Assembly (NCBI GenBank): GCA_964598205.1
Contig: CAZRBB010000001.1
Location: forward strand, 28,199 to 92,198
DNA: 64,000 nucleotides
Direction of reading: 5' to 3'
Source: an uncultured Candidatus Saccharibacteria bacterium
GTDB taxonomy: Bacteria > Patescibacteriota > Minisyncoccia > CAIUEV01 > JAHKAQ01
Part shown: piece after piece, positions 1,211-61,239 of the stretch
How positions within the stretch are numbered: the first letter of the stretch is position 1
How the letters are laid out: every line of letters starts with the position of its first letter
Made by a program: the position numbers and the translations under genes
The notes under the pieces: model-generated
Seen by the model: only the letters and a program-made list of their open reading frames with translations
The model's database searches: none
Told to the model about the DNA's origin: nothing

Positions 1211-2254
1211 TTAGATTTTAAAAATAATTACATCACCGTCAGCCACCACATAATCACGGCCCTCAGTGCGAAGGGCACCACTTTCTCTGGCCTTAGCAAA
1301 AGATCCTAGGCGCGTAAAGTCATTATAGCTTACTACTTCGGCCCTAATAAATTTGTCTTTAAAATCGTTATGGATTCTAGCGCCGGCTTCTGGAGCAGTG
1401 CTATTCTTAGGGATTGTCCAAGCTCGGGATTCGGTTTCTCCAGTGGTAAAAAAGGTAATCAGGTCAAGTTCAGCGTAAGCCTTTTGTGGCAAGGAGGTAA
1501 GATTGCTCTCTAATCCTAATTCTATTGCTTCTTCTGGTGAAAGTAGTAACAGTTCTTCTTCTGTTTTAATATCCAGCTTTAAATGAGAAATGGTATTGAT
1601 TAGAGATTCGGTTTGGGGATGATTTTTTTCAGCGAGATTTAAAAGAAAAAGCGTGGGTTTGGCGGTTAAAAAATGGAGACCTTTCAAGATTTCTTGCTCT
1701 TCCTTACTTAAATCTAAAATGGCAACCGGTTTTCCTTGGTTTAACTGAGCCTCTACTTTTTCCAAAACCGCTAACTCCAAGATTGCTTCCTTATTATTGC
1801 CTCGAGCTTCTTTTTGGGTTTTTACTCTTCTTTTTTGTAGCGTAGCTAGGTCGGCCAGTGCCAACTCGGTGTTAATAATGTCTATATCTTCTTTTGGGGA
1901 ATGGTTTTCTTCTACATGTTTAATATTTTCTGATTCAAAACAGCGGACCACTTGGCAAATCAAATCCACCTCTCTAATGTTGGCTAAGAATTGATTCCCC
2001 AAACCTTCTCCCTTGTGAGCACCCTTAACTAGACCGGCAATATCTACAAATTCAATCACTGCTGGTACAGTTTTTTGCGACTTAGAAATATTGGTCAAGG
2101 TTTTTAATCGTTCGTCGTTAACAGTCACAATTCCCACATTGGGGTTGATTGTACAAAAAGGGTAGTTATTAATATCTACGGGATTTTTAGTTAGCGCCTT
2201 AAACAGAGTTGATTTCCCCACATTAGGCAGGCCAACGATTCCAACAGAAAGCAT
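1211..2254 (-). CDS. ychF: Ribosome-binding ATPase YchF (Obg-family GTPase)
   Basis: Contains GIVGLPNVGKSTLF P-loop, YchF-type G-domain and a C-terminal TGS-like domain; 347 aa. Confidence 0.9.
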   Translation of the reverse strand: MLSVGIVGLPNVGKSTLFKALTKNPVDINNYPFCTINPNVGIVTVNDERLKTLTNISKSQKTVPAVIEFVDIAGLVKGAHKGEGLGNQFLANIREVDLICQVVRCFESENIKHVEENHSPKEDIDIINTELALADLATLQKRRVKTQKEARGNNKEAILELAVLEKVEAQLNQGKPVAILDLSKEEQEILKGLHFLTAKPTLFLLNLAEKNHPQTESLINTISHLKLDIKTEEELLLLSPEEAIELGLESNLTSLPQKAYAELDLITFFTTGETESRAWTIPKNSTAPEAGARIHNDFKDKFIRAEVVSYNDFTRLGSFAKARESGALRTEGRDYVVADGDVIIFKI

Positions 2255-2361
2255 GCTTTGTAATTAGTAATTCAGCTTTTATACTAGGCTTTCGGCTTGT
2301 TTTTGTCTACTCAAAAATGGGGTGCTGTGCTATCTTAAAAGCACATTTAATTAAAACTACT

Positions 2362-3450
2362 ATGCAAATTGTTATTTTGGCCGGCGGCCGCGGGACTCGA
2401 CTTTGGCCATTAAGTCGCACAGGGAAGTCCAAGCAGTTCAACGCTATTACCGGGGAAAAGACCATGCTAGAAATAACACTAAATCGTTTCTTAGGTTCCT
2501 ATCCCAAAGAAAAGATTTTTATTTCTACCACGCCAGAATGTTTGGAAAATGTGACTAAGACTCTTCCCGATTTCCCCCAAGAACAAATCATTGTGGAGCC
2601 AGAAATGCGCGATACTGCCGCCGCCATGGGCTTTGTGGCTGGTTTTCTTTCTCTAAAGAATCCCGACGAACCCTTGGCCTTTATTGCTTCTGATCACCAT
2701 ATTCACAATCAAGCCAAATTTTTAGAAATCCTAAAAGTAGCTGAACAAGAAATTAAAGCCACTGGTAAATTACTAGATGTTGGCATTGTTCCCGAAGGAC
2801 CGTCTACCGCCCTAGGCTATACCCGCATTGGTCAGCGGATAAAGGTAGAAAACGGAGTAGAGATTTTTGAATTTTTAGGCCACAAAGAAAAACCGGAATA
2901 CAAAGTGGCACAAGAATATGTAAAAAGCGGAGAATATTTGTGGCACGGTAACTTTTACATGTGGACTCCGAGCGCCTTTTTAGGGGCCTTTGAAACTTAT
3001 GCTCCAGAAATTTACCAAAAATTAAAAGAGATCGTGGAATTGCTAAAGGCAAAAGCACCGGCCGAAAAAATAAAAAGCATTTACCAAGAGATTCCCAAAG
3101 TAATGATTGATCTTGCCCTTACGGAAAAAATGAACAGTCACGATATTTTGATTATTAAAGGTGAATTCGGCTGGAGCGACATTGGCGGTTGGGATGTATT
3201 GCACAAAAAACTGGCTGTAAAGCAAGACGAGCAAGGAAACTTGGTTAAGGGAGAATGGGTAGGGATAGACACTTCTCAAAGTTTAATCTACTCTTATCCA
3301 GGAAAGCTGGTAGCTACGATCGGTGTGGACGATTTAGTGGTAGTAGACACCCCAGACGCCCTTCTGATCTGCCCCAAAGGTCGATCCCAAGAAGTAAAAA
3401 AGATGGTAGAAGAGATTAAGAAGTTAAGGGACGGCGAAAAGTATTTGTAG
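2362..3450 (+). CDS. Mannose-1-phosphate guanylyltransferase / sugar nucleotidyltransferase
   Basis: MQIVILAGGRGTRLWPLSR nucleotidyltransferase signature. The ORF opens at 2317; the internal Met at 2362 is the likely start. Confidence 0.8.
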   Translation: MQIVILAGGRGTRLWPLSRTGKSKQFNAITGEKTMLEITLNRFLGSYPKEKIFISTTPECLENVTKTLPDFPQEQIIVEPEMRDTAAAMGFVAGFLSLKNPDEPLAFIASDHHIHNQAKFLEILKVAEQEIKATGKLLDVGIVPEGPSTALGYTRIGQRIKVENGVEIFEFLGHKEKPEYKVAQEYVKSGEYLWHGNFYMWTPSAFLGAFETYAPEIYQKLKEIVELLKAKAPAEKIKSIYQEIPKVMIDLALTEKMNSHDILIIKGEFGWSDIGGWDVLHKKLAVKQDEQGNLVKGEWVGIDTSQSLIYSYPGKLVATIGVDDLVVVDTPDALLICPKGRSQEVKKMVEEIKKLRDGEKYL

Positions 3451-3521
3451 AAAAAAATCGTTTAAGCGAGCGGCGCAGGCTTTAACAAAGAAATGCGCTA
3501 ACAAATTGTCCCCAACAAAAA

Positions 3522-3608
3522 GGAGAGATGGCTGAGCGGCCGAAAGCAGCACACTGCTAATGTGCTGACCCCTTAAAAGGTCCGAGGGTTCGAATCCCTC
3601 TCTCTCCG
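3522..3608 (+). tRNA. tRNA-Ser (anticodon GCT)
   Basis: Cloverleaf folded by hand. Acceptor GGAGAGA/TCTCTCC, a 3-bp D stem, anticodon stem GCACA/TGTGC with loop CTGCTAA, long variable arm (class II), T arm GAGGG-TTCGAAT-CCCTC. CCA is not encoded. Confidence 0.85.
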
Positions 3609-3647
3609 CAAGCAAATCAGAAATATAATGTAAGAAAAATTCCCTCC

Positions 3648-4496
3648 CTACATCCCACACAAATCACCTATCTGAGGTTTCCCAAACTTTGAATAAGCAG
3701 AATTTAAAATTCTTTCCTTAAAATTCCAATTACTTTTCCATTTCCTTAAAATTTCTACGCTGTTGTCGTTAGAATAAATTACCAAATCTCCCGGTTCTGC
3801 CTTGGAAAGTGATTGGCCAATCTGAATATTTTCAGCATGTTTTCCTATTCTAAACTTTATTTTTTCTCCGGCACTTTGGGTAATTTTTTGGTGAATGCTT
3901 TTGGTTTTTAGTGTTGAGTTTTCAAAAAGCGCCAAATTGCCAAATCGATCCACATAAGCCAAGGAACATCCTTTTGGTGGATCGGGAATGGAATCGGGAT
4001 CGGCCTCTTGTAGTTTGAGTCCATGATTGGTAGCTAACAGGCGGGGGACATAGCTTGATCGGTGCTGTTCTTTGTCGCCGTTATAAAGACCATTTCCTTG
4101 ATTCGGAAGAAACCATAGCTTCTTTACGGAATCTTTAACGGCGGAGAGTGCGCTCAAGGGAGTGACCACGATTCTAATTTTTTCTTTGAACTCTGCTAGG
4201 TAAAATGGTTCACCATTGGCATTGGCCTTTGTTCGGGGAGCATTGTTAATAAAAAGACCGGTCGATTCGGCTTCTGGATTATCTCGATGCAAACGCAAGG
4301 CCTCTCTTGCAATGTGGTTGTAATACATTTCGGGAACGCCATAAATATCAAAGTGCTGAAGCCCAGGAAAATCCGAACGAATGGCTTCTGCCAAGCGAGC
4401 GGCAACATCTGGAGATTTTAGGGGATTCCAAACGGCGTGTCCTCCATGACAATCGCTAAGAGAGAAAATACGAGACGGATAATGCAGTTTAGGCAT
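3648..4496 (-). CDS. Conserved hypothetical protein; family not recognised, possibly a phosphoesterase-like fold
   Basis: Long ORF 3648..4589. The N-terminal 31 aa look like a non-native extension, so the Met at 4496 (MPKLHYPS...) is the likely start. Contains an SDCHGG motif. Confidence 0.4.
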   Translation of the reverse strand: MPKLHYPSRIFSLSDCHGGHAVWNPLKSPDVAARLAEAIRSDFPGLQHFDIYGVPEMYYNHIAREALRLHRDNPEAESTGLFINNAPRTKANANGEPFYLAEFKEKIRIVVTPLSALSAVKDSVKKLWFLPNQGNGLYNGDKEQHRSSYVPRLLATNHGLKLQEADPDSIPDPPKGCSLAYVDRFGNLALFENSTLKTKSIHQKITQSAGEKIKFRIGKHAENIQIGQSLSKAEPGDLVIYSNDNSVEILRKWKSNWNFKERILNSAYSKFGKPQIGDLCGM

Positions 4497-6121: not shown

Positions 6122-6616
6122 ATGGCAAATTACAAATCATCAACCAAAGAAGGCAAATGTATTTTTTGTGAAATTGTTAAAGGGAATATCCAAACTCCGG
6201 GAATTTTTTGGGAAGATAAAGAGTTTATAGCCTTTTTATCTACCTGGCCAAGTACCGAAGGCTTTACGGTTGTTATTCCTAAGAAGCATTATGGAAGTGA
6301 TGTTTTGGCAATGCCCGACAAAACGCTGCAAAAGTTTATTATTGTAGCTAAAAAAGTTTCTAATATTCTCTTGAATCATTTTAAGGACGTCGGTCGGGTT
6401 GGCTTAATAATGGAAGGAACAGGTATGGATCATGCCCATATTAAGCTCATTCCCATGCATGGAACGGAGCATATGAAGCGGGGAATCTGGAAACAATACC
6501 CATCTGGTCGGTCTGATTATTTTAAAAAATACAAAGGCTATCTTGTTTCTAATGACGGTCCCCAAGCGGATCCAGAAGAACTAAAAAAATTAGCCAAAAA
6601 ACTAAGAAAAGTTTAA
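6122..6616 (+). CDS. HIT-family (histidine triad) hydrolase
   Basis: N-terminal CxxC and a histidine-triad region DHAHIKLIP; 164 aa. The third His of HxHxH appears replaced by Lys. Confidence 0.75.
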   Translation: MANYKSSTKEGKCIFCEIVKGNIQTPGIFWEDKEFIAFLSTWPSTEGFTVVIPKKHYGSDVLAMPDKTLQKFIIVAKKVSNILLNHFKDVGRVGLIMEGTGMDHAHIKLIPMHGTEHMKRGIWKQYPSGRSDYFKKYKGYLVSNDGPQADPEELKKLAKKLRKV

Positions 6617-6832
6617 TAGTGGTTTTTTATAGCTACTATTTCTTGCCCAGAAGGTAAATTGGAGAGTATTGGGTCATGGTTTCGGCGTAGTCGCTAGACC
6701 GAACAATCTTTTCCTCTGGTTTTGTAGTATAATCAATTTAGTTATGAATCCTTTGGCCTTGGCAAAGAAGATCCTTGCGGTAAGTTATTTTTTCCTGGTC
6801 TAATATTCTAAGCAGTAAAAATTATAAGAATC

Positions 6833-7684
6833 ATGGATAACCCTAATAAATTGTCAGACCATTGGAAGAGCATAGCCAGTGCTTGGTCCATTCTAACTAA
6901 TCCGTCGCGTCCATCAGTTGGCGATATGGAAATTTACAAAAAACACCTCCAATCCAAAGGGAAAACAGGTTTAAATATCCTAATCCTTGGCTCAACTCCC
7001 GAATTAAGAGACTTGGCCTTGAGTTATAAGGAGGCAAATGTGGTGATTGTGGACATTAATCCAGAAATGATGTTGGCCATGACTGAATTTATGGAAAACG
7101 ATTCTTCTCGTGAAGTCCAAATAAGATCCAATTGGCTCGCTGCCCCTCTCTGCGAAAACTATTTTGACATAATATTGGCAGATTTTACATTCGAAAATAT
7201 GGCTTTTGAAAATCATCAGGCCTATTTTGATAACATTAGAAAATGGCTTAAAAATGATGGCCTCTATATTAGCCGGATTTTTACTTTTTTAAAAAAGTAT
7301 CAGCCAATGACTATTAGGGACATAGAAGGCTATTGTAAAGAGAAACCTGTTAATAATGAACTTTTATCTTTGTTTTGGGCTATAGCGGTGTTTTTTACGG
7401 GTGATATGATTACTCGAGAAATAAAAGTAGCTGATTTTTTCCAGAAGCTAGAGGAATATCGAGCAGATGTTAACAATCCCGATGTTCCAGCAATCAAATC
7501 TATTCTGGCAATTAACGAAACCGTTTTTCCCAAAGAAAAATCATGGTTTGCTTGGGACGATATAGGATTTAAGGATCTCATTGAGAGTTCAGGTCTTAAA
7601 ATCGTTTCCCAAGAATGCGCCAAAGATGTAAATATGCCGAACGAATACAAAGACTTTGCGCCTATCTTTTTAATTCGGAAATAA
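6833..7684 (+). CDS. Hypothetical protein, possibly a class I SAM-dependent methyltransferase-like fold
   Basis: LNILILGSTPE (motif I-like), VVIVDINPEM and DIILADF stretches in methyltransferase order. This is a weak call. Confidence 0.35.
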   Translation: MDNPNKLSDHWKSIASAWSILTNPSRPSVGDMEIYKKHLQSKGKTGLNILILGSTPELRDLALSYKEANVVIVDINPEMMLAMTEFMENDSSREVQIRSNWLAAPLCENYFDIILADFTFENMAFENHQAYFDNIRKWLKNDGLYISRIFTFLKKYQPMTIRDIEGYCKEKPVNNELLSLFWAIAVFFTGDMITREIKVADFFQKLEEYRADVNNPDVPAIKSILAINETVFPKEKSWFAWDDIGFKDLIESSGLKIVSQECAKDVNMPNEYKDFAPIFLIRK

Positions 7685-7710
7685 TAATAATTTCCCTAAC
7701 TAAACAAAAA

Positions 7711-8337
7711 ATGGGTTTTACTGCGTTTATTGCCGATTACATTACTCAGTTCATTGGATCTACCGGTTATGTAACAGTTTTTTTGGGCATGATCTTGGAA
7801 AGTATGATTTTTCCGATTCCCAGTGAAGCGATTATGCCTTTTGCTGGTTTCCTAATTGCGGAAGGAAAATTTAACTTCCCTTTGGTGATTCTAATAAGCA
7901 CGCTTGGCAGTCTTGCTGGTTCCTTACTTTCTTATTGCATGGGTTATTACGGCGGCCACCCTTTTGTTAATAAATTTGGTAAATATTTTTTAATAGATCA
8001 GGAGGAACTAGACTTTACAGAAAAATTCTTTAAAAAAAATGGTCAAGTTGCCATCTTTATTTGCCGTTTTATCCCTATAATTAGGCATTTAATTTCCCTG
8101 CCAGCCGGCATGGCCAAAATGGATCTTTGGAGATTTTCTGTTCTAACGGTAATTGGTGCTGGTCTTTGGAATACTTTTTTAACGGTTGTTGGTTATCGTT
8201 TGCGCCAGAATTGGGAATTAGTAATAAAATACAGCAAAGTGGTGGACGATTTTATGATCATCTTAATTTTAATCTTGATTGCTCTTTATATTTATCGTCA
8301 TATTCATAAAAAGAGAAAGCTTAAAAAAGCCGAATGA
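7711..8337 (+). CDS. DedA/SNARE-associated family membrane protein
   Basis: Multi-TM protein with the DedA-type reentrant region (FICRFIPIIRHLISLPAGM). The ATG at 7711 is chosen over the long ORF start at 7615. Confidence 0.8.
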   Translation: MGFTAFIADYITQFIGSTGYVTVFLGMILESMIFPIPSEAIMPFAGFLIAEGKFNFPLVILISTLGSLAGSLLSYCMGYYGGHPFVNKFGKYFLIDQEELDFTEKFFKKNGQVAIFICRFIPIIRHLISLPAGMAKMDLWRFSVLTVIGAGLWNTFLTVVGYRLRQNWELVIKYSKVVDDFMIILILILIALYIYRHIHKKRKLKKAE

Positions 8338-14498: not shown

Positions 14499-14615
14499 AT
14501 AGTCTTGGCGGTTCAAGCGACAAGGAAACACCTGATCCCATCCCGAACTCAGAAGTTAAGCTTGTCTGCGCCGATGGTAGCGCTTTTGCGCAAGAGTAGG
14601 CCATCGCCAAGACCA
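14499..14615 (+). rRNA. rrf: 5S ribosomal RNA
   Basis: Helix I AGTCTTGGCG/CGCCAAGAC and the conserved internal blocks CCTGATCCCATCCCGAACTCAGAAGTTAAGC, GCGCCGATGGTAGC and GAGTAGG. Flanking GCCCAT/ATGGGC extends helix I as a processing stem. Confidence 0.85.
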
Positions 14616-47883: not shown

Positions 47884-48852
47884 CTACCAGATTACGCTCA
47901 TGTAGCAATTTTCTACCGCACAGGCATACGAGCACCGGCCGGTGGTGAGACTTGTGGTCAGCTCGCGGGCCTTGATCAATGCTTTTCGAAGCAGCCCATC
48001 AAGCCGTTCCTTTGTCCCGGTCCAGTTGCAAACCCCAACCTGTACCTCTTTGCCAGGGGCCCAATACTTAACCGTTACCAAATCTTGAGCACCTGCATCC
48101 TGCCCATAAATCACGCGGTATTCCTCAAGCCGCTCTTCGCCGATCTTGGTCCAGGCGCTTCCGATAGACGAAGTCTTGGGGCAGTCATCGCCAACGCAAC
48201 CGCCGGTCCTTGGCGCGTAACCAGTGCCCCCACTTCCGCCCGCATGACCGCCAGACCGTACGCCCTTGCCGCCAGATCCTCCGCTTCTTCTGCCTTTAAC
48301 ACCTTCGTCGCAGAGATTGGATTGCTTGGCAATCAGGAGATCCGTTTCGATTTTTTTTGCCAATATCAGGTCGGCCTCAATTTTTTTTGCGGTGATCAGC
48401 TCTGCCTCGATTTTTTTGGTATGGACTGATTCCGCTTCGAGCCGATTCACTTTCAGGCTGGGCTTCCGATTGGCATAGTACGCCTTCCGCAATTCCCGAC
48501 CCTTCTTTATCGCTATTTCCATGTCGTCCCGTGTTGTCGGGTGCCGCAACACCATCCCCGCCGGTAGGTTGTCCACCTGGGAAATGTTGAGCCCAGTATG
48601 CGCGGCAACGACCCACGCATTCCATCCTACTTTGTCGGAGTAACCCATCAGGGTTGCCCCGCTCGGCAGAGTCCCCTCGGCGATTACGCCCAGGGCGTCT
48701 ACAATGTTTTGCGTGTCCCCAGCAATCTTGTCCAGTTTTTCTTCCATGCGATCCAATTGATCGCTGTTCCCCAAGGCCAGAACTTCGGCCGTGGGTGCCC
48801 CTGTCAACGCCAACAAAAAAATCCCCAATACTACCAATGCCAGTTTTTTCAT
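47884..48852 (-). CDS. Secreted LysM-domain protein with 11-aa tandem repeats and a Gly-rich/Cys-rich C-terminal region; GC-rich island gene
   Basis: Signal peptide MKKLALVVLGIFLLALTGAPTA, a LysM-like block (GYSDKVGWNAWVVAAHTGLNISQVDNLPAGMVLRHP), repeats AKKIEA(E/D)LI(T/L), a GGSGG linker and a Cys-rich end. Local GC is visibly higher than the flanks and the third codon positions are GC-rich. Confidence 0.6.
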   Translation of the reverse strand: MKKLALVVLGIFLLALTGAPTAEVLALGNSDQLDRMEEKLDKIAGDTQNIVDALGVIAEGTLPSGATLMGYSDKVGWNAWVVAAHTGLNISQVDNLPAGMVLRHPTTRDDMEIAIKKGRELRKAYYANRKPSLKVNRLEAESVHTKKIEAELITAKKIEADLILAKKIETDLLIAKQSNLCDEGVKGRRSGGSGGKGVRSGGHAGGSGGTGYAPRTGGCVGDDCPKTSSIGSAWTKIGEERLEEYRVIYGQDAGAQDLVTVKYWAPGKEVQVGVCNWTGTKERLDGLLRKALIKARELTTSLTTGRCSYACAVENCYMSVIW

Positions 48853-49126
48853 GTTGCCTTCCTTTCATTTCATTCTCTTGTTGTTATTGTTCTTTCATTG
48901 TCTTTTTTCGCCTTTGGTCAACTTAACCAAACTGCCGTCAATTACAAATTTAAAACTACGAACAACAAAAAAATCCGCCATTCGTAATTTTAAATTCGTA
49001 ATTGAGCGTAGTTCGGTTAAGTCGACTTTCTAATTTTTAAAGATCGTTCCTGTCCTCCAGCTTTGGGTAAAAAATTTTCACCCAAGGCCGGAGAGAGGAG
49101 AAAAAATCTCCCCTCTTAGTATGTTT

Positions 49127-55710: not shown

Positions 55711-56232
55711 ATGAGCTTTAAAAAAGTATTTTTAGCGGTTGTGGTTTTAACTGTATTAGCTTACGGAGGCTATGTTTATAAAGACCGTTTTTGGGAAACC
55801 CAAAAAACTCAAACCAAGGAAGAAACAAGGCCTGAGTTTAACAAATCGTCAAAAGATCCTTCTTCCTTAGACCAAGCTCCAACCAATCCGGATAATTCTG
55901 GCGATCTTCCAAAAGAAACAACTCCCGAAGAAACCGAAACCCAAACAGAAGCTGTCTTAGAAGACTATTTAAAAGACTGCGATAATAAATGTGAGTCATT
56001 TTTTGGTGCCCAACTAGATCGCTGTTTAGAAATTTGTCGAATAAAAGGATCTTCTCCAGAAGAAGACGGATCCATTGAGTCTTGCGAATCAAAAACAGGA
56101 GAAGAAAAAGATTTTTGTTTAAAGAATCAAGCAGTCAAGGAAAAAAAAGAGTCTCTTTGTAAAGAAATAAGCAATCAAGCTGTTAGGGAAGCTTGCTTTA
56201 ACGCTGTTGCCGAAACAATTCTTGACCGATGA
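55711..56232 (+). CDS. Small secreted Cys-rich hypothetical protein
   Basis: Signal peptide, acidic region, 10 Cys in CxxxC-like spacing. Confidence 0.4.
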   Translation: MSFKKVFLAVVVLTVLAYGGYVYKDRFWETQKTQTKEETRPEFNKSSKDPSSLDQAPTNPDNSGDLPKETTPEETETQTEAVLEDYLKDCDNKCESFFGAQLDRCLEICRIKGSSPEEDGSIESCESKTGEEKDFCLKNQAVKEKKESLCKEISNQAVREACFNAVAETILDR

Positions 56233-56840
56233 TTAAAAGCAATATTTTCCCAGATCTGCCGTTTTCACAAGCAAAAGTTGGCCCAAAGATGGCTGTTTCC
56301 GGAGAGCATTCGGTTTATCGTTATGGTGACAAAGAAGTGATTAAGTTTCCTGCTGGGCCAATCCATTATGCTAATAATGAAGAGGCTTATCGCAAAATTT
56401 TGAATGAATTTCAATTAGCTAAAAGGTATTTAGGAGAATTTATTGCTCCGGCTAGCATTTTCACTTACAAAAAGAACAACAAAAAAGCTTACTGTATTAT
56501 TCAAAAGTTTATTAAGGGGACTCCTTTAAAAATAGAAGATCTTCAAAATAAAGATTTAAAGGAGAAGCTGGAAGAGTTGATTAAGGCTAATCGAGAGATG
56601 CGCATTAACACCGGATATTCTTTTGAGTTTTTTGGTATTAGGGGACTTTTTTTCCACCGATTTTTAAAAAAAATGGAAAATGTTTTAGTGGATGAATCGG
56701 GAAATTTAAAAATAATTGATTTTGGAATGATTTCCGAAATTAACATGGTTTCTAGTTCTCCAGTTTTGCGGTCTTTTATTCAATGGGCCCTAAAAAGACA
56801 GAGCAAAATTCTAAAAGAGAGCTATCTTGCCATAGAATAG
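56229..56840 (+). CDS. Protein-kinase-like fold protein, possibly a pseudokinase
   Basis: VIKFP (VAIK-like), HRFLKKMEN in place of the HRDLKxxN catalytic loop (Asp replaced by Phe), and a DFG motif (IIDFGM). Confidence 0.4.
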   Translation: MIKSNIFPDLPFSQAKVGPKMAVSGEHSVYRYGDKEVIKFPAGPIHYANNEEAYRKILNEFQLAKRYLGEFIAPASIFTYKKNNKKAYCIIQKFIKGTPLKIEDLQNKDLKEKLEELIKANREMRINTGYSFEFFGIRGLFFHRFLKKMENVLVDESGNLKIIDFGMISEINMVSSSPVLRSFIQWALKRQSKILKESYLAIE

Positions 56841-59385: not shown

Positions 59386-60243
59386 GTGCTTATGCAGATG
59401 AACAAAGTTAACGAGGCAGGGGATCTGGTTATTGCCAAGGAGTCGGCCGACTACTCGTATCTTTTTGGCCGAAATAGCCAGTACGAGGTTCGCGCCTACA
59501 TTGGCGACGAAACATACAACATTATTAACAATGTAGGGGGGATTGGCGATCAGGTCTCCGAAGTCTATGTTCGAAGTTTTAGTGATGGCAAGTACTGGAA
59601 CGAAAGCTGGACTCCTCAAAAGGCCTCGGCAGAAATCAATCAAGCTCTGCTCTGGGATAACCAGAAGCGCATTCCGGTAGCCGCGCTCTTAATTTACCAC
59701 GGAGACGATCCGGAGATGGCGCACCTCAAAGAAAAGGTCATCGGTCTTTCCTGGGGAGTCCTTTTGGAGAATCTGGAAGCCTTAGACCAAAAACGGGATT
59801 TTCCGTTCAGTCTTCCGAAAAACTCCAAGAAATTCGGAAAAAAATTGTTTACCGCCTGGGCCCGCAATTTCTACCAGGAAGAAAGGGTGTTGGTGTACCG
59901 CGAGGTCGCCGTCCACCCCGACGCCCGGAAAAAGGGCAACCCGTTCATTGCCCACTTGGCGTACCCGATCGTTGGCCGTGCCTGGGAGCTTGGTTATCCG
60001 GTACTCATGTATTGGACCAACCGAAAATCCCCCAGCGTCGGCCTTGGTCTGGGCCTCGGCTGGTTGCCCATCTATTTTTGGGGCGATCCGGCCGATCACC
60101 TATTGATAGCCGGGCATACCAAGCCGTCTTCCGAAACCATGTTGACTTGTCTAGACAAGGACAAGTCAGTGGTAAAGGCCGGCTGGGAAACAGTAATTTC
60201 CCGTGCCATTGATTTTTCTGAAAGACACCCCCAACCGAAATAG
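59386..60243 (+). CDS. Hypothetical protein on a GC-rich island; possibly an acyltransferase-like core (unverified)
   Basis: 285-aa ORF whose DNA is visibly more GC-rich than its neighbours. No confident motif, only a weak GNAT-like stretch (VYREVAVHPDARKKGNPF). Confidence 0.45.
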   Translation: MLMQMNKVNEAGDLVIAKESADYSYLFGRNSQYEVRAYIGDETYNIINNVGGIGDQVSEVYVRSFSDGKYWNESWTPQKASAEINQALLWDNQKRIPVAALLIYHGDDPEMAHLKEKVIGLSWGVLLENLEALDQKRDFPFSLPKNSKKFGKKLFTAWARNFYQEERVLVYREVAVHPDARKKGNPFIAHLAYPIVGRAWELGYPVLMYWTNRKSPSVGLGLGLGWLPIYFWGDPADHLLIAGHTKPSSETMLTCLDKDKSVVKAGWETVISRAIDFSERHPQPK

Positions 60244-60393
60244 AGGATCGGCGCGGGGCCGTATGCCGTATAAAGAAAAGAGCGAGTTATTCTTTTGGTG
60301 CTAACAACCAAAGGTAGCCTCGTTCTTTTTTATTTTTTAAAAATGTTTTATACTAACAAAAATACTACATCGTCTTATTCTTATTTCTTGAAA

Positions 60394-61239
60394 ATGAACG
60401 GAAGAAATATTGCCGAAATTTCCCGCCAAGCAGTCGCCGAAAGACCAGATTACCTAGAAGGATTTTTTACCGGCGCTAAAAGTCGGAACTATTTTTTAGG
60501 GATTAACTACGCTTCGGCGGTGGTAAATAAAAAATTCTCTCATCCTGGATCAGCTCTCTTAGATTGCATCAACGCTTTTGATTTGGCAGAAGTTGCTCAA
60601 GCTAATATTGGCCAAATAAATATGATCAAAGTCTCTTCTTTTTGTGGCCCAGACGGAATTATTTGGGGTTACGATGTTGCCCAAGTGCCTAAAGAAATTA
60701 ATCACTGGGGAATTGATCCAGTAGGAGATACTGATGGTAATAAAATTCCAATTTATGACGCCGATCCCCTAAGAGAAGCTTTTAAAAAACTAACTGGCAC
60801 CGTTTCTAAAAAACGGTTTCCTTTTTTACCAGCAGCCCATGTTCCGTGTGCGGCCAAATTTGTTACCGTTCTTGAACCAGGCTTTATTTTTTCGGCGGTA
60901 GGTATTGGTATTCCAGTAGAAAGAGATAAAGCAGCTTGCCTTATTATGGAAGATATTGGCAGTCTTTCCTTGGAAGAATTAGGAACTTATGGCAGCAACT
61001 ATCAGGAAGTCGTTGTGAATAATTTAGCCAAAAGCATTGTTCAAATTGGAAAGAATCAACAAGTAAAGTTTAAAGAAATTTTTGCTGGTATTTCAGAGGC
61101 TAAAGTAGAAAAAGAGCAAGCTGGCTGTTCTTTAGTGGCCATGCCTTATTTTGTTTTAGCCAAAAATGCTTATCCCAAGGATCAGGACTTAGACAAATTA
61201 AGCTTAAGCGAGTGGGAAAAATCAATCTTCAAGATTTAA
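60394..61239 (+). CDS. hdcA: Pyruvoyl-dependent histidine decarboxylase (HdcA) proenzyme homolog
   Basis: IGQINMIKVSSFCG (an IGQINM...SSF block with the Ser-Ser self-cleavage site), PIYDADPL, APGFIF...CAAKFVT and AKSI blocks match the Lactobacillus pyruvoyl HDC as I recall it. Start taken at Met 60394. Confidence 0.6.
   Translation: MNGRNIAEISRQAVAERPDYLEGFFTGAKSRNYFLGINYASAVVNKKFSHPGSALLDCINAFDLAEVAQANIGQINMIKVSSFCGPDGIIWGYDVAQVPKEINHWGIDPVGDTDGNKIPIYDADPLREAFKKLTGTVSKKRFPFLPAAHVPCAAKFVTVLEPGFIFSAVGIGIPVERDKAACLIMEDIGSLSLEELGTYGSNYQEVVVNNLAKSIVQIGKNQQVKFKEIFAGISEAKVEKEQAGCSLVAMPYFVLAKNAYPKDQDLDKLSLSEWEKSIFKI

Follow-up and report, generated by a model that had tools for sequence, protein, structure and literature searches.

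A divergent pyruvoyl-dependent decarboxylase in a conserved cassette with a putative GNAT-fold partner and a sensor histidine kinase in a Saccharibacteria genome

Organization of the locus

The stretch of DNA considered here, which we call the window, is a 64,000-nucleotide (64-kb) part of contig CAZRBB010000001.1 (assembly GCA_964598205.1, positions 28,199 to 92,198) from an uncultured Candidatus Saccharibacteria bacterium. Toward its end lies a gene for a pyruvoyl-dependent amino-acid decarboxylase of the histidine decarboxylase (HDC) family, which is preceded by a gene for a protein that we refer to as the partner (GNATp) and is followed by a gene for a multi-transmembrane sensor histidine kinase (HK7), all three on the same strand (Table 1). 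Decarboxylases with these neighbors form a single clade in which the genes recur together across phyla, and the make-up of this cassette suggests a module for small-molecule signaling or regulated amine modification.

The decarboxylase open reading frame (ORF) is nested in a longer, TTG-started ORF that begins at 60295, and its stop codon is followed after 15 nucleotides by the start of the kinase gene. In guanine-plus-cytosine (GC) content and in GC content at third codon positions (GC3), the decarboxylase gene (38.9% and 29.8%) and the kinase gene (33.2% and 32.0%) stand beside a window average of 38% GC, while the partner gene, with 51.5% GC and 61.6% GC3, is compositionally foreign in the window. 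A preliminary description of this DNA had already recorded a GC-rich gene upstream and a multi-transmembrane GAF histidine kinase downstream, and both observations are borne out, the former by these values and the latter by Pfam domains and hydrophobic segments.

To place the locus in context, we surveyed homologous loci, 73 from GTDB species representatives, located by a pattern scan with 11 sequences, and 80 from metagenomes. In their ORFs, decarboxylase and partner homologues were sought with hidden Markov models (HMMs) and kinase homologues by phmmer with the N-terminal 470 residues of the kinase. Numbers preceded by L are labels of these surveyed loci.

Table 1. Features of the decarboxylase locus and of related loci with a FeeM-family gene. 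Positions are those of the window unless a locus label is given.
Feature	Position	Strand	Basis or remark
Partner (GNATp), 283 aa; alternative GTG start at 59386	59392-60243	+	Homologues beside clade decarboxylases
Partner-decarboxylase spacer	60244-60393	.	150 nt, AT-rich, GC 34.7%
Pyruvoyl-dependent amino-acid decarboxylase proenzyme, HDC family	60394-61239	+	281 aa from ATG; PF02329, fold
Asp63-Glu66 codons (D-L-A-E), counterparts of Lactobacillus 30a Asp63 and Glu66	60580-60591	+	Invariant in alignments
Ser81-Ser82 codons, predicted serinolysis site	60634-60639	+	Structure alignment, conservation
Glu186 codon, counterpart of Lactobacillus 30a HDC Glu197	60949-60951	+	Within ACLIMEDIG, 60934-60960
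Sensor histidine kinase HK7, 726 aa	61255-63435	+	Pfam domains, hydrophobic segments
FeeM-family genes upstream of HDC-like gene	L133 2517-3125; L135, L136 7166-7759; L138 7152-7757		PF21926

A divergent member of the pyruvoyl histidine decarboxylase family

The preliminary description had recognized in this ORF the hallmark blocks of a pyruvoyl-type histidine decarboxylase, including a Ser-Ser self-cleavage site, and this assignment holds at the level of the family. The protein matches the Pfam HDC model PF02329 with 133.9 bits (E 8.6e-39; gathering cut-off 25) in an alignment that spans residues 8-277 and profile positions 7-288 of 294. A search against solved structures pairs it with the Lactobacillus 30a alpha chain (1hq6_B, E 1.6e-12) such that Phe83 lies opposite residue 2 of that chain, and Ser82 therefore aligns with the serine that forms the pyruvoyl group. 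The translation of positions 60607-60642 is IGQINMIKVSSF, in which VSSF represents residues 80-83, and Ser81-Ser82 coincides with the site at which the Lactobacillus 30a proenzyme is cleaved. By this alignment, Ser82 is predicted to become the N-terminal pyruvoyl of an alpha chain comprising residues 82-281, with residues 1-81 making up the beta chain.

The residues expected of such an enzyme are strictly conserved. Ser81, Ser82, Asp63 and Glu66 are invariant in a 27-sequence decarboxylase alignment, and among the 33 GTDB members of the clade that carries the cassette (see below) Ser81 is present in 32, while Ser82, Asp63, Glu66 and Glu186 are present in all 33. Phe83 and Lys155 are likewise invariant or nearly so across the clade, and Glu186 is also the counterpart of Glu109 in the arginine decarboxylase of M. 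jannaschii. By the literature on the Lactobacillus 30a and M. jannaschii enzymes, Asp63 of the Lactobacillus 30a enzyme binds the cationic side chain and Glu197 is catalytic. Mutagenesis of Glu197 and Glu66 in the Lactobacillus 30a enzyme by McElroy and Robertus 1989 is among the work cited in PMC2720952. An AlphaFold2 model of the decarboxylase built from 27 homologues (pLDDT 94.5, pTM 0.92) has as its best fold match in the PDB the Lactobacillus 30a chain 1pya_B (E 1.5e-13, TM-score 0.75 normalized to the target), after which only pyruvoyl arginine decarboxylases appear in the fold search. The structural kinship with pyruvoyl decarboxylases that the preliminary description implied is thus seen in the predicted fold as well, and profile and model together confirm that the product of the gene is truly related to pyruvoyl-type histidine decarboxylases, if divergent from them.

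The suggestion that the gene specifies a histamine-producing HdcA of the kind associated with acid stress is not supported. The NCBIfam equivalog model for HdcA, TIGR00541, gives the window protein 123.1 bits against a curated cut-off of 346.65, while the HdcA of a Tetragenococcus plasmid, used as a control, scores 541.6 bits; other members of the cassette clade score 96-120 bits, and none of eight family members outside HdcA that were scored reaches the cut-off. Identity to the Tetragenococcus HdcA is 29%, and in neighbor-joining trees, which are distance trees without bootstrap support, the decarboxylase falls outside HdcA in a separate monophyletic clade. The HdcA proteins of Lactobacillus 30a, Tetragenococcus and Staphylococcus capitis (PDB 1pya, 1hq6) have in common with it the Pfam family and fold, the Ser81-Ser82 register, Asp63, Glu66, Phe83, Lys155 and the equivalent of Glu197. 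However, the window decarboxylase is about 35 residues shorter, and its pocket is altered in that Phe195 and Ala80 of the Lactobacillus 30a enzyme are replaced in its clade by Leu/Ile and Val, respectively. Residues specific to the clade are His149, Pro151, Met185, Cys84, Cys182 and Cys245.

The genetic context differs as well. On the Tetragenococcus plasmid the canonical order is hdcC-hdcA-hdcB-hisS, with HdcB annotated as the HdcA maturation protein. These cluster partners (hdcP/hdcC, hdcB, hisS) are not found at the window decarboxylase, which has another conserved neighborhood instead. In agreement with the preliminary description, phmmer searches with the Tetragenococcus proteins detected no HdcP/HdcC-type antiporter and no HdcB homologue in the 64-kb window, and searches with HdcC and HdcB gave no match in any related cassette locus. 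This negative result is informative because the same search does recover an hdcC-like antiporter at the Bacteroidales homologue L049 (E 3.7e-77). That locus, which belongs to a distant clade, shows the conventional arrangement of an HDC homologue and an hdcC-like antiporter at 156-917 and 1588-3021.

A comparison with the pyruvoyl arginine decarboxylases bears on the substrate. Their enzymes PvlArgDC and AaxB (PDB 1n2m, 1mt1) have the same superfamily fold and the NAFD...SS motif, and they provide the second-best structural match to the decarboxylase. In contrast to it, PvlArgDC is only about 160 residues long and is without the large HDC-type insertions, and in Chlamydia it pairs with an arginine/agmatine antiporter that has no counterpart at the window decarboxylase. 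The arginine decarboxylase model TIGR00286 yields 27.4 bits, well under its cut-off of 106.95, and PF01862 yields 27.9 bits (cut-off 22.7), confined to profile positions 62-160 and lying beneath the far stronger HDC match. The conserved Asp of the NAFD motif is common to arginine decarboxylases and so points to a substrate with a cationic side chain rather than to histidine specifically. Distant relatives at L080 (5893-6876) and L164 (4848-5720) are publicly named ‘histidine decarboxylase, pyruvoyl type’, with the Gene Ontology term for histidine metabolism, and relatives within the subclade of the window decarboxylase bear this name too; to judge by the TIGR00541 scores, the name appears to have spread beyond its evidence.

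A conserved three-gene cassette

The closest relative of the window locus is L002, whose decarboxylase is approximately 60% identical, followed by L003 (48%). Both have an unannotated protein of approximately 240 residues before the decarboxylase and a kinase of the architecture HisKA_7TM-GAF-HisKA-HATPase_c after it, and the order is partner, decarboxylase, kinase and response regulator. In neighbor-joining trees the decarboxylases with these neighbors make up one monophyletic clade. When the non-identical members of this clade are pooled, 46 have both partner and kinase, 10 have the partner only and 6 have neither, while 5 have the partner on a contig that is too short downstream and 6 have the kinase on a contig that is too short upstream. 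The partner thus adjoins the decarboxylase in 61 of the 67 loci with enough upstream sequence (91%), and the kinase is adjacent, usually just downstream, in 52 of the 68 with enough downstream sequence (76%); outside the clade the partner occurs in no surveyed locus. The adjacency of the kinase, which the preliminary description recorded without its wider distribution, is therefore not incidental: the kinase gene and the gene for the likely GNAT-fold partner, GC-rich in the window, both keep their place beside the decarboxylase in several phyla.

The arrangement is compact and only occasionally rearranged. The partner lies upstream of the decarboxylase everywhere except at L018, where the order is decarboxylase, partner and kinase, and in the Actinomycetota loci the neighboring kinase gene is encoded on the other strand. 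Where decarboxylase and kinase are on the same strand, the gap between them ranges from -17 to +82 nucleotides and is mostly from -17 to +26. The spacer between partner and decarboxylase ranges elsewhere from about -40 to +147 nucleotides and in most cassettes is shorter than in the window or is replaced by an overlap; for example, on a Cellvibrionaceae chromosome (L005) the partner overlaps the start of the decarboxylase by 4 nucleotides. These close gaps and overlaps constitute an operon-like arrangement. A scan for promoters and terminators around the window cassette gave no excess over shuffled sequence, and none within the spacer was convincing. The pairwise distances of the three genes are correlated (Mantel r 0.67-0.77, p <= 0.0005), which fits co-inheritance of the genes, although shared organismal phylogeny could contribute to the correlation.

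A subclade from Myxococcales and Acidobacteria has lost both partner and kinase while retaining an intact decarboxylase. Two loci with neither neighbor have other genes nearby: at L090 an aldehyde dehydrogenase gene (2217-3578) overlaps the start of the decarboxylase, and at L099 a fragment of a thiamine pyrophosphate (TPP) enzyme lies upstream and a methyltransferase downstream (1057-1866 and 2826-3725). Long decarboxylase ORFs of 712-726 residues in Myxococcales (L019, L020) were considered as possible fusions and set aside; their N-terminal 430 residues contain no Pfam domain, the loci have a GC content of 76%, and they most likely reflect over-extension of the ORF.

The family as a whole is rare. 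For the entire superfamily, an exhaustive HMMER scan yielded only 270 proteins (E <= 0.001) among 1.84 billion cluster representatives, and a word-index search returned 134 clusters of homologues, mostly 38-60% identical and 260-300 residues long. The few clusters with names are from Patescibacteria, Porticoccaceae, Polyangiales and Promineifilaceae, and the closest homologues of the window decarboxylase come from metagenome-assembled genomes of Patescibacteria and Saccharibacteria. By record title, the cassette occurs in Patescibacteria, where it is concentrated, and in Gammaproteobacteria/Pseudomonadales and Actinomycetota, with locus GC contents of 34-65%, and its cohesion across genomes of such different composition is characteristic of a functional unit that is complete in itself. 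Neither neighbor is present in the large Alphaproteobacteria group or in the Methylococcus, Lentisphaerae, Bacteroidales and actinomycete HDC groups. A search of a phage collection found only a canonical Streptococcus hdcA. Literature searches on the cassette, on HDC in the candidate phyla radiation (CPR), on PF02329 and on HisKA_7TM returned no description of the subclade or of its conserved neighborhood. The enzyme family is already known, and the cassette is the part for which no published description was found.

The upstream partner

The partner belongs to a fast-evolving family of proteins of roughly 240 residues. The window protein is homologous to the upstream proteins of related loci (26% identity, E 1e-11), which at L002, L003 and L005 are encoded directly before the HDC-like gene, and an iterated HMM picked up 37 ORFs of the family among the GTDB loci surveyed first, as well as members in the metagenome loci. 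No Pfam or NCBIfam model matches the window partner, and among 34 members of the family only 2 reach a curated GNAT model (Acetyltransf_1, E 0.03). Word-index protein searches with the single sequence and with a four-sequence profile retrieved only the protein itself and one relative, and a tblastn search for the partner in plasmids gave no match. While the decarboxylase of the window is 59% identical to that of L002, no other partner exceeds 29% identity to the window partner; this disparity, taken with the foreign base composition, suggests that the window partner was replaced in situ by a homologue from a donor of higher GC content.

A profile of the 34 members searched against the PDB matches five GNAT acetyltransferase structures, 3f8k (E 0.0037), 7l1k, 1wwz, 1s3z and 3jvn, with E values of 0.004-0.6 and in the beta4-alpha3-beta5 core. 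The family pattern reads Y..VF....W.E.W ... V.GF.WG ... (insert) ... V...E.A/GI...R.G ... WTS..S....L....GF. A structure model of the window partner from a two-sequence alignment is of low confidence (pLDDT 41), and its order of secondary-structure elements follows the GNAT topology (beta1-alpha1-alpha2-beta2-beta3-beta4-alpha3-beta5-alpha4-beta6-beta7). Weak as each is, the profile matches and the low-confidence model combine to make a GNAT fold likely, and the model is read no further than this. At the position of the P-loop (Q/R-x-x-G-x-G/A) the window protein reads R-K-K-G-N-P, and in the family Arg is common and Gly is not invariant. Carrier-protein-dependent GNATs such as FeeM have degenerate P-loops (PMC11685415), and the poorly conserved P-loop of the partner would fit an enzyme of this type. 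The same degeneracy is found in LuxI-type acyl-homoserine lactone synthases, which like FeeM are carrier-protein-dependent and GNAT-like.

We also considered whether the partner could be HdcB and rejected it, as the partner profile aligns with HdcB of Tetragenococcus at an hhalign probability of 0.4% and phmmer gives no match. Two variations of the partner were seen among the surveyed loci. L025, from a CPR3 genome, has two tandem partner paralogues (6192-6896 and 6987-7931), and a Cys-rich, zinc-ribbon-like insertion (CxxC...CxxC) follows helix alpha2 in the second of these as well as in the partners of L008 (3267-4265), L015 (6955-7947) and L029 (4801-5616).

The downstream kinase and its response regulators

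The kinase consists of a polytopic region (approximately residues 1-285) with at least seven hydrophobic segments within residues 1-260, a GAF domain (320-454), a HisKA domain (492-560) and a HATPase_c domain (608-719), with Pfam scores of 48.9 bits for GAF_2, 65.2 for HisKA and 96.5 for HATPase_c. It is 34% identical over its full length (E 2e-127) to the L002 kinase, which carries PF16927 (HisKA_7TM), and homologues of its N-terminal 470 residues adjoin the decarboxylase in most members of the clade. The two HisKA_7TM kinases of L083 lack GAF, which leaves the membrane domain as the constant component of the sensor.

A response regulator often accompanies the cassette in other genomes. In the Parcubacteria loci an OmpR-type response regulator is encoded directly upstream of the partner, so that with the kinase downstream the two enzymes are flanked by both halves of a two-component system, and other loci encode a receiver-only regulator after the kinase. 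Some cassette loci, namely L003 (4891-7451 and 10968-13963), L029 and L033, have another, paralogous 7TM-GAF kinase just upstream of the partner, giving the order kinase, partner, decarboxylase and kinase, and at L003 this second kinase has its own response regulator.

A FeeM-family protein in the position of the partner

Adjoining the main clade, but not part of it, a small subclade (L133, L135, L136 and L138) has the same pair of decarboxylase and kinase, the latter composed in L136, which was examined, of HisKA_7TM, GAF, HisKA and HATPase_c domains. The gene of about 200 codons before the decarboxylase in this subclade scores 37.1 bits in L136 and 42.2 bits in L138 (cut-off 27) on PF21926, the model for N-acyl amino acid synthases of the FeeM family, and the upstream proteins of L133 and L135 are close homologues of these two. 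The window partner has no PF21926 match. In both lineages, then, an acyltransferase or acyltransferase-like family fills the slot before the decarboxylase, which favors an N-acyltransferase over a pure maturation role for the partner. The acceptor of FeeM is the alpha-amine of its amino acid substrate, and acylation there would block a pyruvoyl decarboxylase; since the pyruvoyl enzyme needs a free alpha-amine, acylation in the cassette would have to come after decarboxylation or be directed at an amine of the side chain.

Proposed function and alternative explanations

The sequences establish the family membership, the conserved residues, the predicted decarboxylase fold and the synteny and co-divergence of the three genes across phyla, and from these we infer a substrate, a product, acyl transfer and ligand sensing by the kinase. 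We tentatively favor, with somewhat less than even confidence, a pathway in which a basic amino acid would be decarboxylated to an amine, the GNAT-type partner would add an acyl group to the amine nitrogen and the kinase would sense the product. Given the strict conservation of its cleavage site, the proenzyme would cleave itself at Ser81/Ser82 and so make its own pyruvoyl cofactor. With Asp63, Glu66 and Glu186 in place, the enzyme would then decarboxylate an amino acid whose side chain is cationic; this may be histidine but could also be arginine, lysine or ornithine. The partner, to judge from its likely fold and from the FeeM-family protein in the same slot of the neighboring subclade, may N-acylate the resulting amine, possibly with an acyl group from acyl carrier protein rather than from acetyl-CoA. 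The kinase, considered by synteny, may sense the amide or the amine via its membrane or GAF region and would signal to a response regulator encoded elsewhere in the genome of the window organism. Such an arrangement would pair a synthase with its receptor, by analogy with CqsA/CqsS or LuxM/LuxN. As general background, both of these systems have synthase genes beside a multi-transmembrane kinase with a presumed ligand site in the membrane, and the likeness of the enzymes and sensor domain of the cassette to them is one of arrangement, not of demonstrated homology. A role in signaling, which the preliminary description had raised, thus agrees with a kinase adjacency conserved across phyla, while the substrate and product of the pathway are putative.

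Several points weigh against this pathway, in addition to the shared phylogeny that could contribute to the Mantel correlations. No response regulator or receiver domain, exporter or acyl carrier gene was detected in the 64-kb window. The window partner is without a curated GNAT or FeeM match and its structure model is of low confidence, and the similarity of its family to FeeM-like proteins is marginal (hhalign E 0.03, in the motif A/B region only), such that the argument from the slot is one of position and not of homology. Moreover, the four FeeM-linked loci probably represent two or three independent lineages, all outside the main clade. The synteny of the kinase would be equally expected if the kinase merely regulates the operon, and about one quarter of clade members with adequate flanking sequence have no adjacent kinase (L005, L081, L082, L085, L096, L106 and others).

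A bolder version of the proposed pathway, which we regard as doubtful, is a horizontally mobile system of chemical communication, so far unrecognized, in which the decarboxylase and a GNAT/FeeM-type acyltransferase would produce an N-acyl amine autoinducer that is sensed by the co-inherited 7TM(-GAF) kinase. Such a system would be especially common in Patescibacteria (CPR) and common also to Gammaproteobacteria and Actinomycetota. To our knowledge, no quorum-sensing system of Patescibacteria (CPR) has been described.

An explanation of similarly limited probability is that the partner is a non-catalytic maturation or regulatory factor, resembling HdcB in function and PanZ/PanM in structure, with the kinase controlling expression only and the free amine as the product. 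Accessory proteins of pyruvoyl enzymes have precedent in HdcB and in PanZ, a protein of the GNAT superfamily that binds PanD, is required for its cleavage and acts stoichiometrically (PMC3496974). As the clade is without HdcB, another helper is plausible, and the strict adjacency of partner and decarboxylase with its occasional start/stop overlap would suit a stoichiometric partner, as would the few invariant residues and poorly conserved P-loop a non-catalytic one. PanD and PanZ resemble the present pair in joining a pyruvoyl proenzyme with a small GNAT-superfamily protein, but the fold of PanD differs from that of the decarboxylase, PanZ has only 127 residues and no detected sequence similarity to the partner, and panZ is restricted to enterobacteria, is not adjacent to panD and is accompanied by no kinase. 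Against a maturation factor, the slot is held in the neighboring subclade by the FeeM family, whose enzymes are not known as maturases, and intact decarboxylases without the partner are present at L016, L019, L020, L028, L090 and L099. These partner-less decarboxylases, the tandem paralogues of L025 and the foreign origin suggested for the window partner argue for a partner that works as an independent enzyme and not as a closely matched binding protein, as duplication and apparent xenologous replacement are easier for such an enzyme.

Slightly less probable still is a housekeeping or stress pathway for an N-acetylated (poly)amine or other metabolite, serving the envelope, osmoprotection or detoxification, for which the two-component system would be a generic transcriptional regulator that answers to an unrelated cue, with no signaling molecule involved. 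Pairs of a decarboxylase and a GNAT enzyme are a common way to make or neutralize amines. In larger genomes the partner and decarboxylase occur without the kinase at L005 and L011 (Cellvibrionaceae), L081 and L082, the last of which has SDR and MarR genes downstream of the pair, and the contexts of L090 (aldehyde dehydrogenase) and L099 (TPP enzyme, methyltransferase) look metabolic. However, a homologous 7TM sensor region, usually with GAF, stays with the enzymes across phyla, which suggests a specific link, and in Parcubacteria the enzymes sit between response regulator and kinase. The joint loss of kinase and partner in the Myxococcales and Acidobacteria subclade also speaks against a generic regulator. 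Finally, a conventional histidine decarboxylase that supplies histamine for pH homeostasis or acid resistance is improbable; in spite of PF02329 membership, the retention of Asp63, Glu66, Ser81, Ser82, Phe83 and Glu186 and the name that PGAP gives to relatives, it is opposed by the TIGR00541 score, the separate clade, the altered pocket (including the clade-specific His149, Pro151 and Met185), a conserved Asp that does not specify histidine, and the lack of antiporter, HdcB and hisS in the window and in every cassette locus.

Significance

Surveys of histamine producers that rely on PF02329 or on the family name would miscount this subclade. If the product is an N-acyl amine sensed by the kinase, the cassette would represent a new family of signal and receptor, and its three genes, expressed heterologously, would give experimental access to a CPR lineage that is hard to study. 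If the partner is instead a maturase, it would be a second GNAT-fold activator of a pyruvoyl enzyme beside PanZ (PMC3496974), acting on a different enzyme fold.

Other features of the window

A lone 5S rRNA gene is present at 14504-14612, with no 16S or 23S rRNA detected in the 64 kb, and four tRNA genes are scattered through the window. A 203-residue ORF at 56229-56840 has a partial match to Pkinase that stays below threshold (28.9 bits; cut-off 31.7). Apart from the partner region, a single kilobase of the window is GC-rich (48001-49000, 51.4% GC); a 322-residue ORF located there on the minus strand (47884-48852) has no Pfam match and may be another foreign gene.

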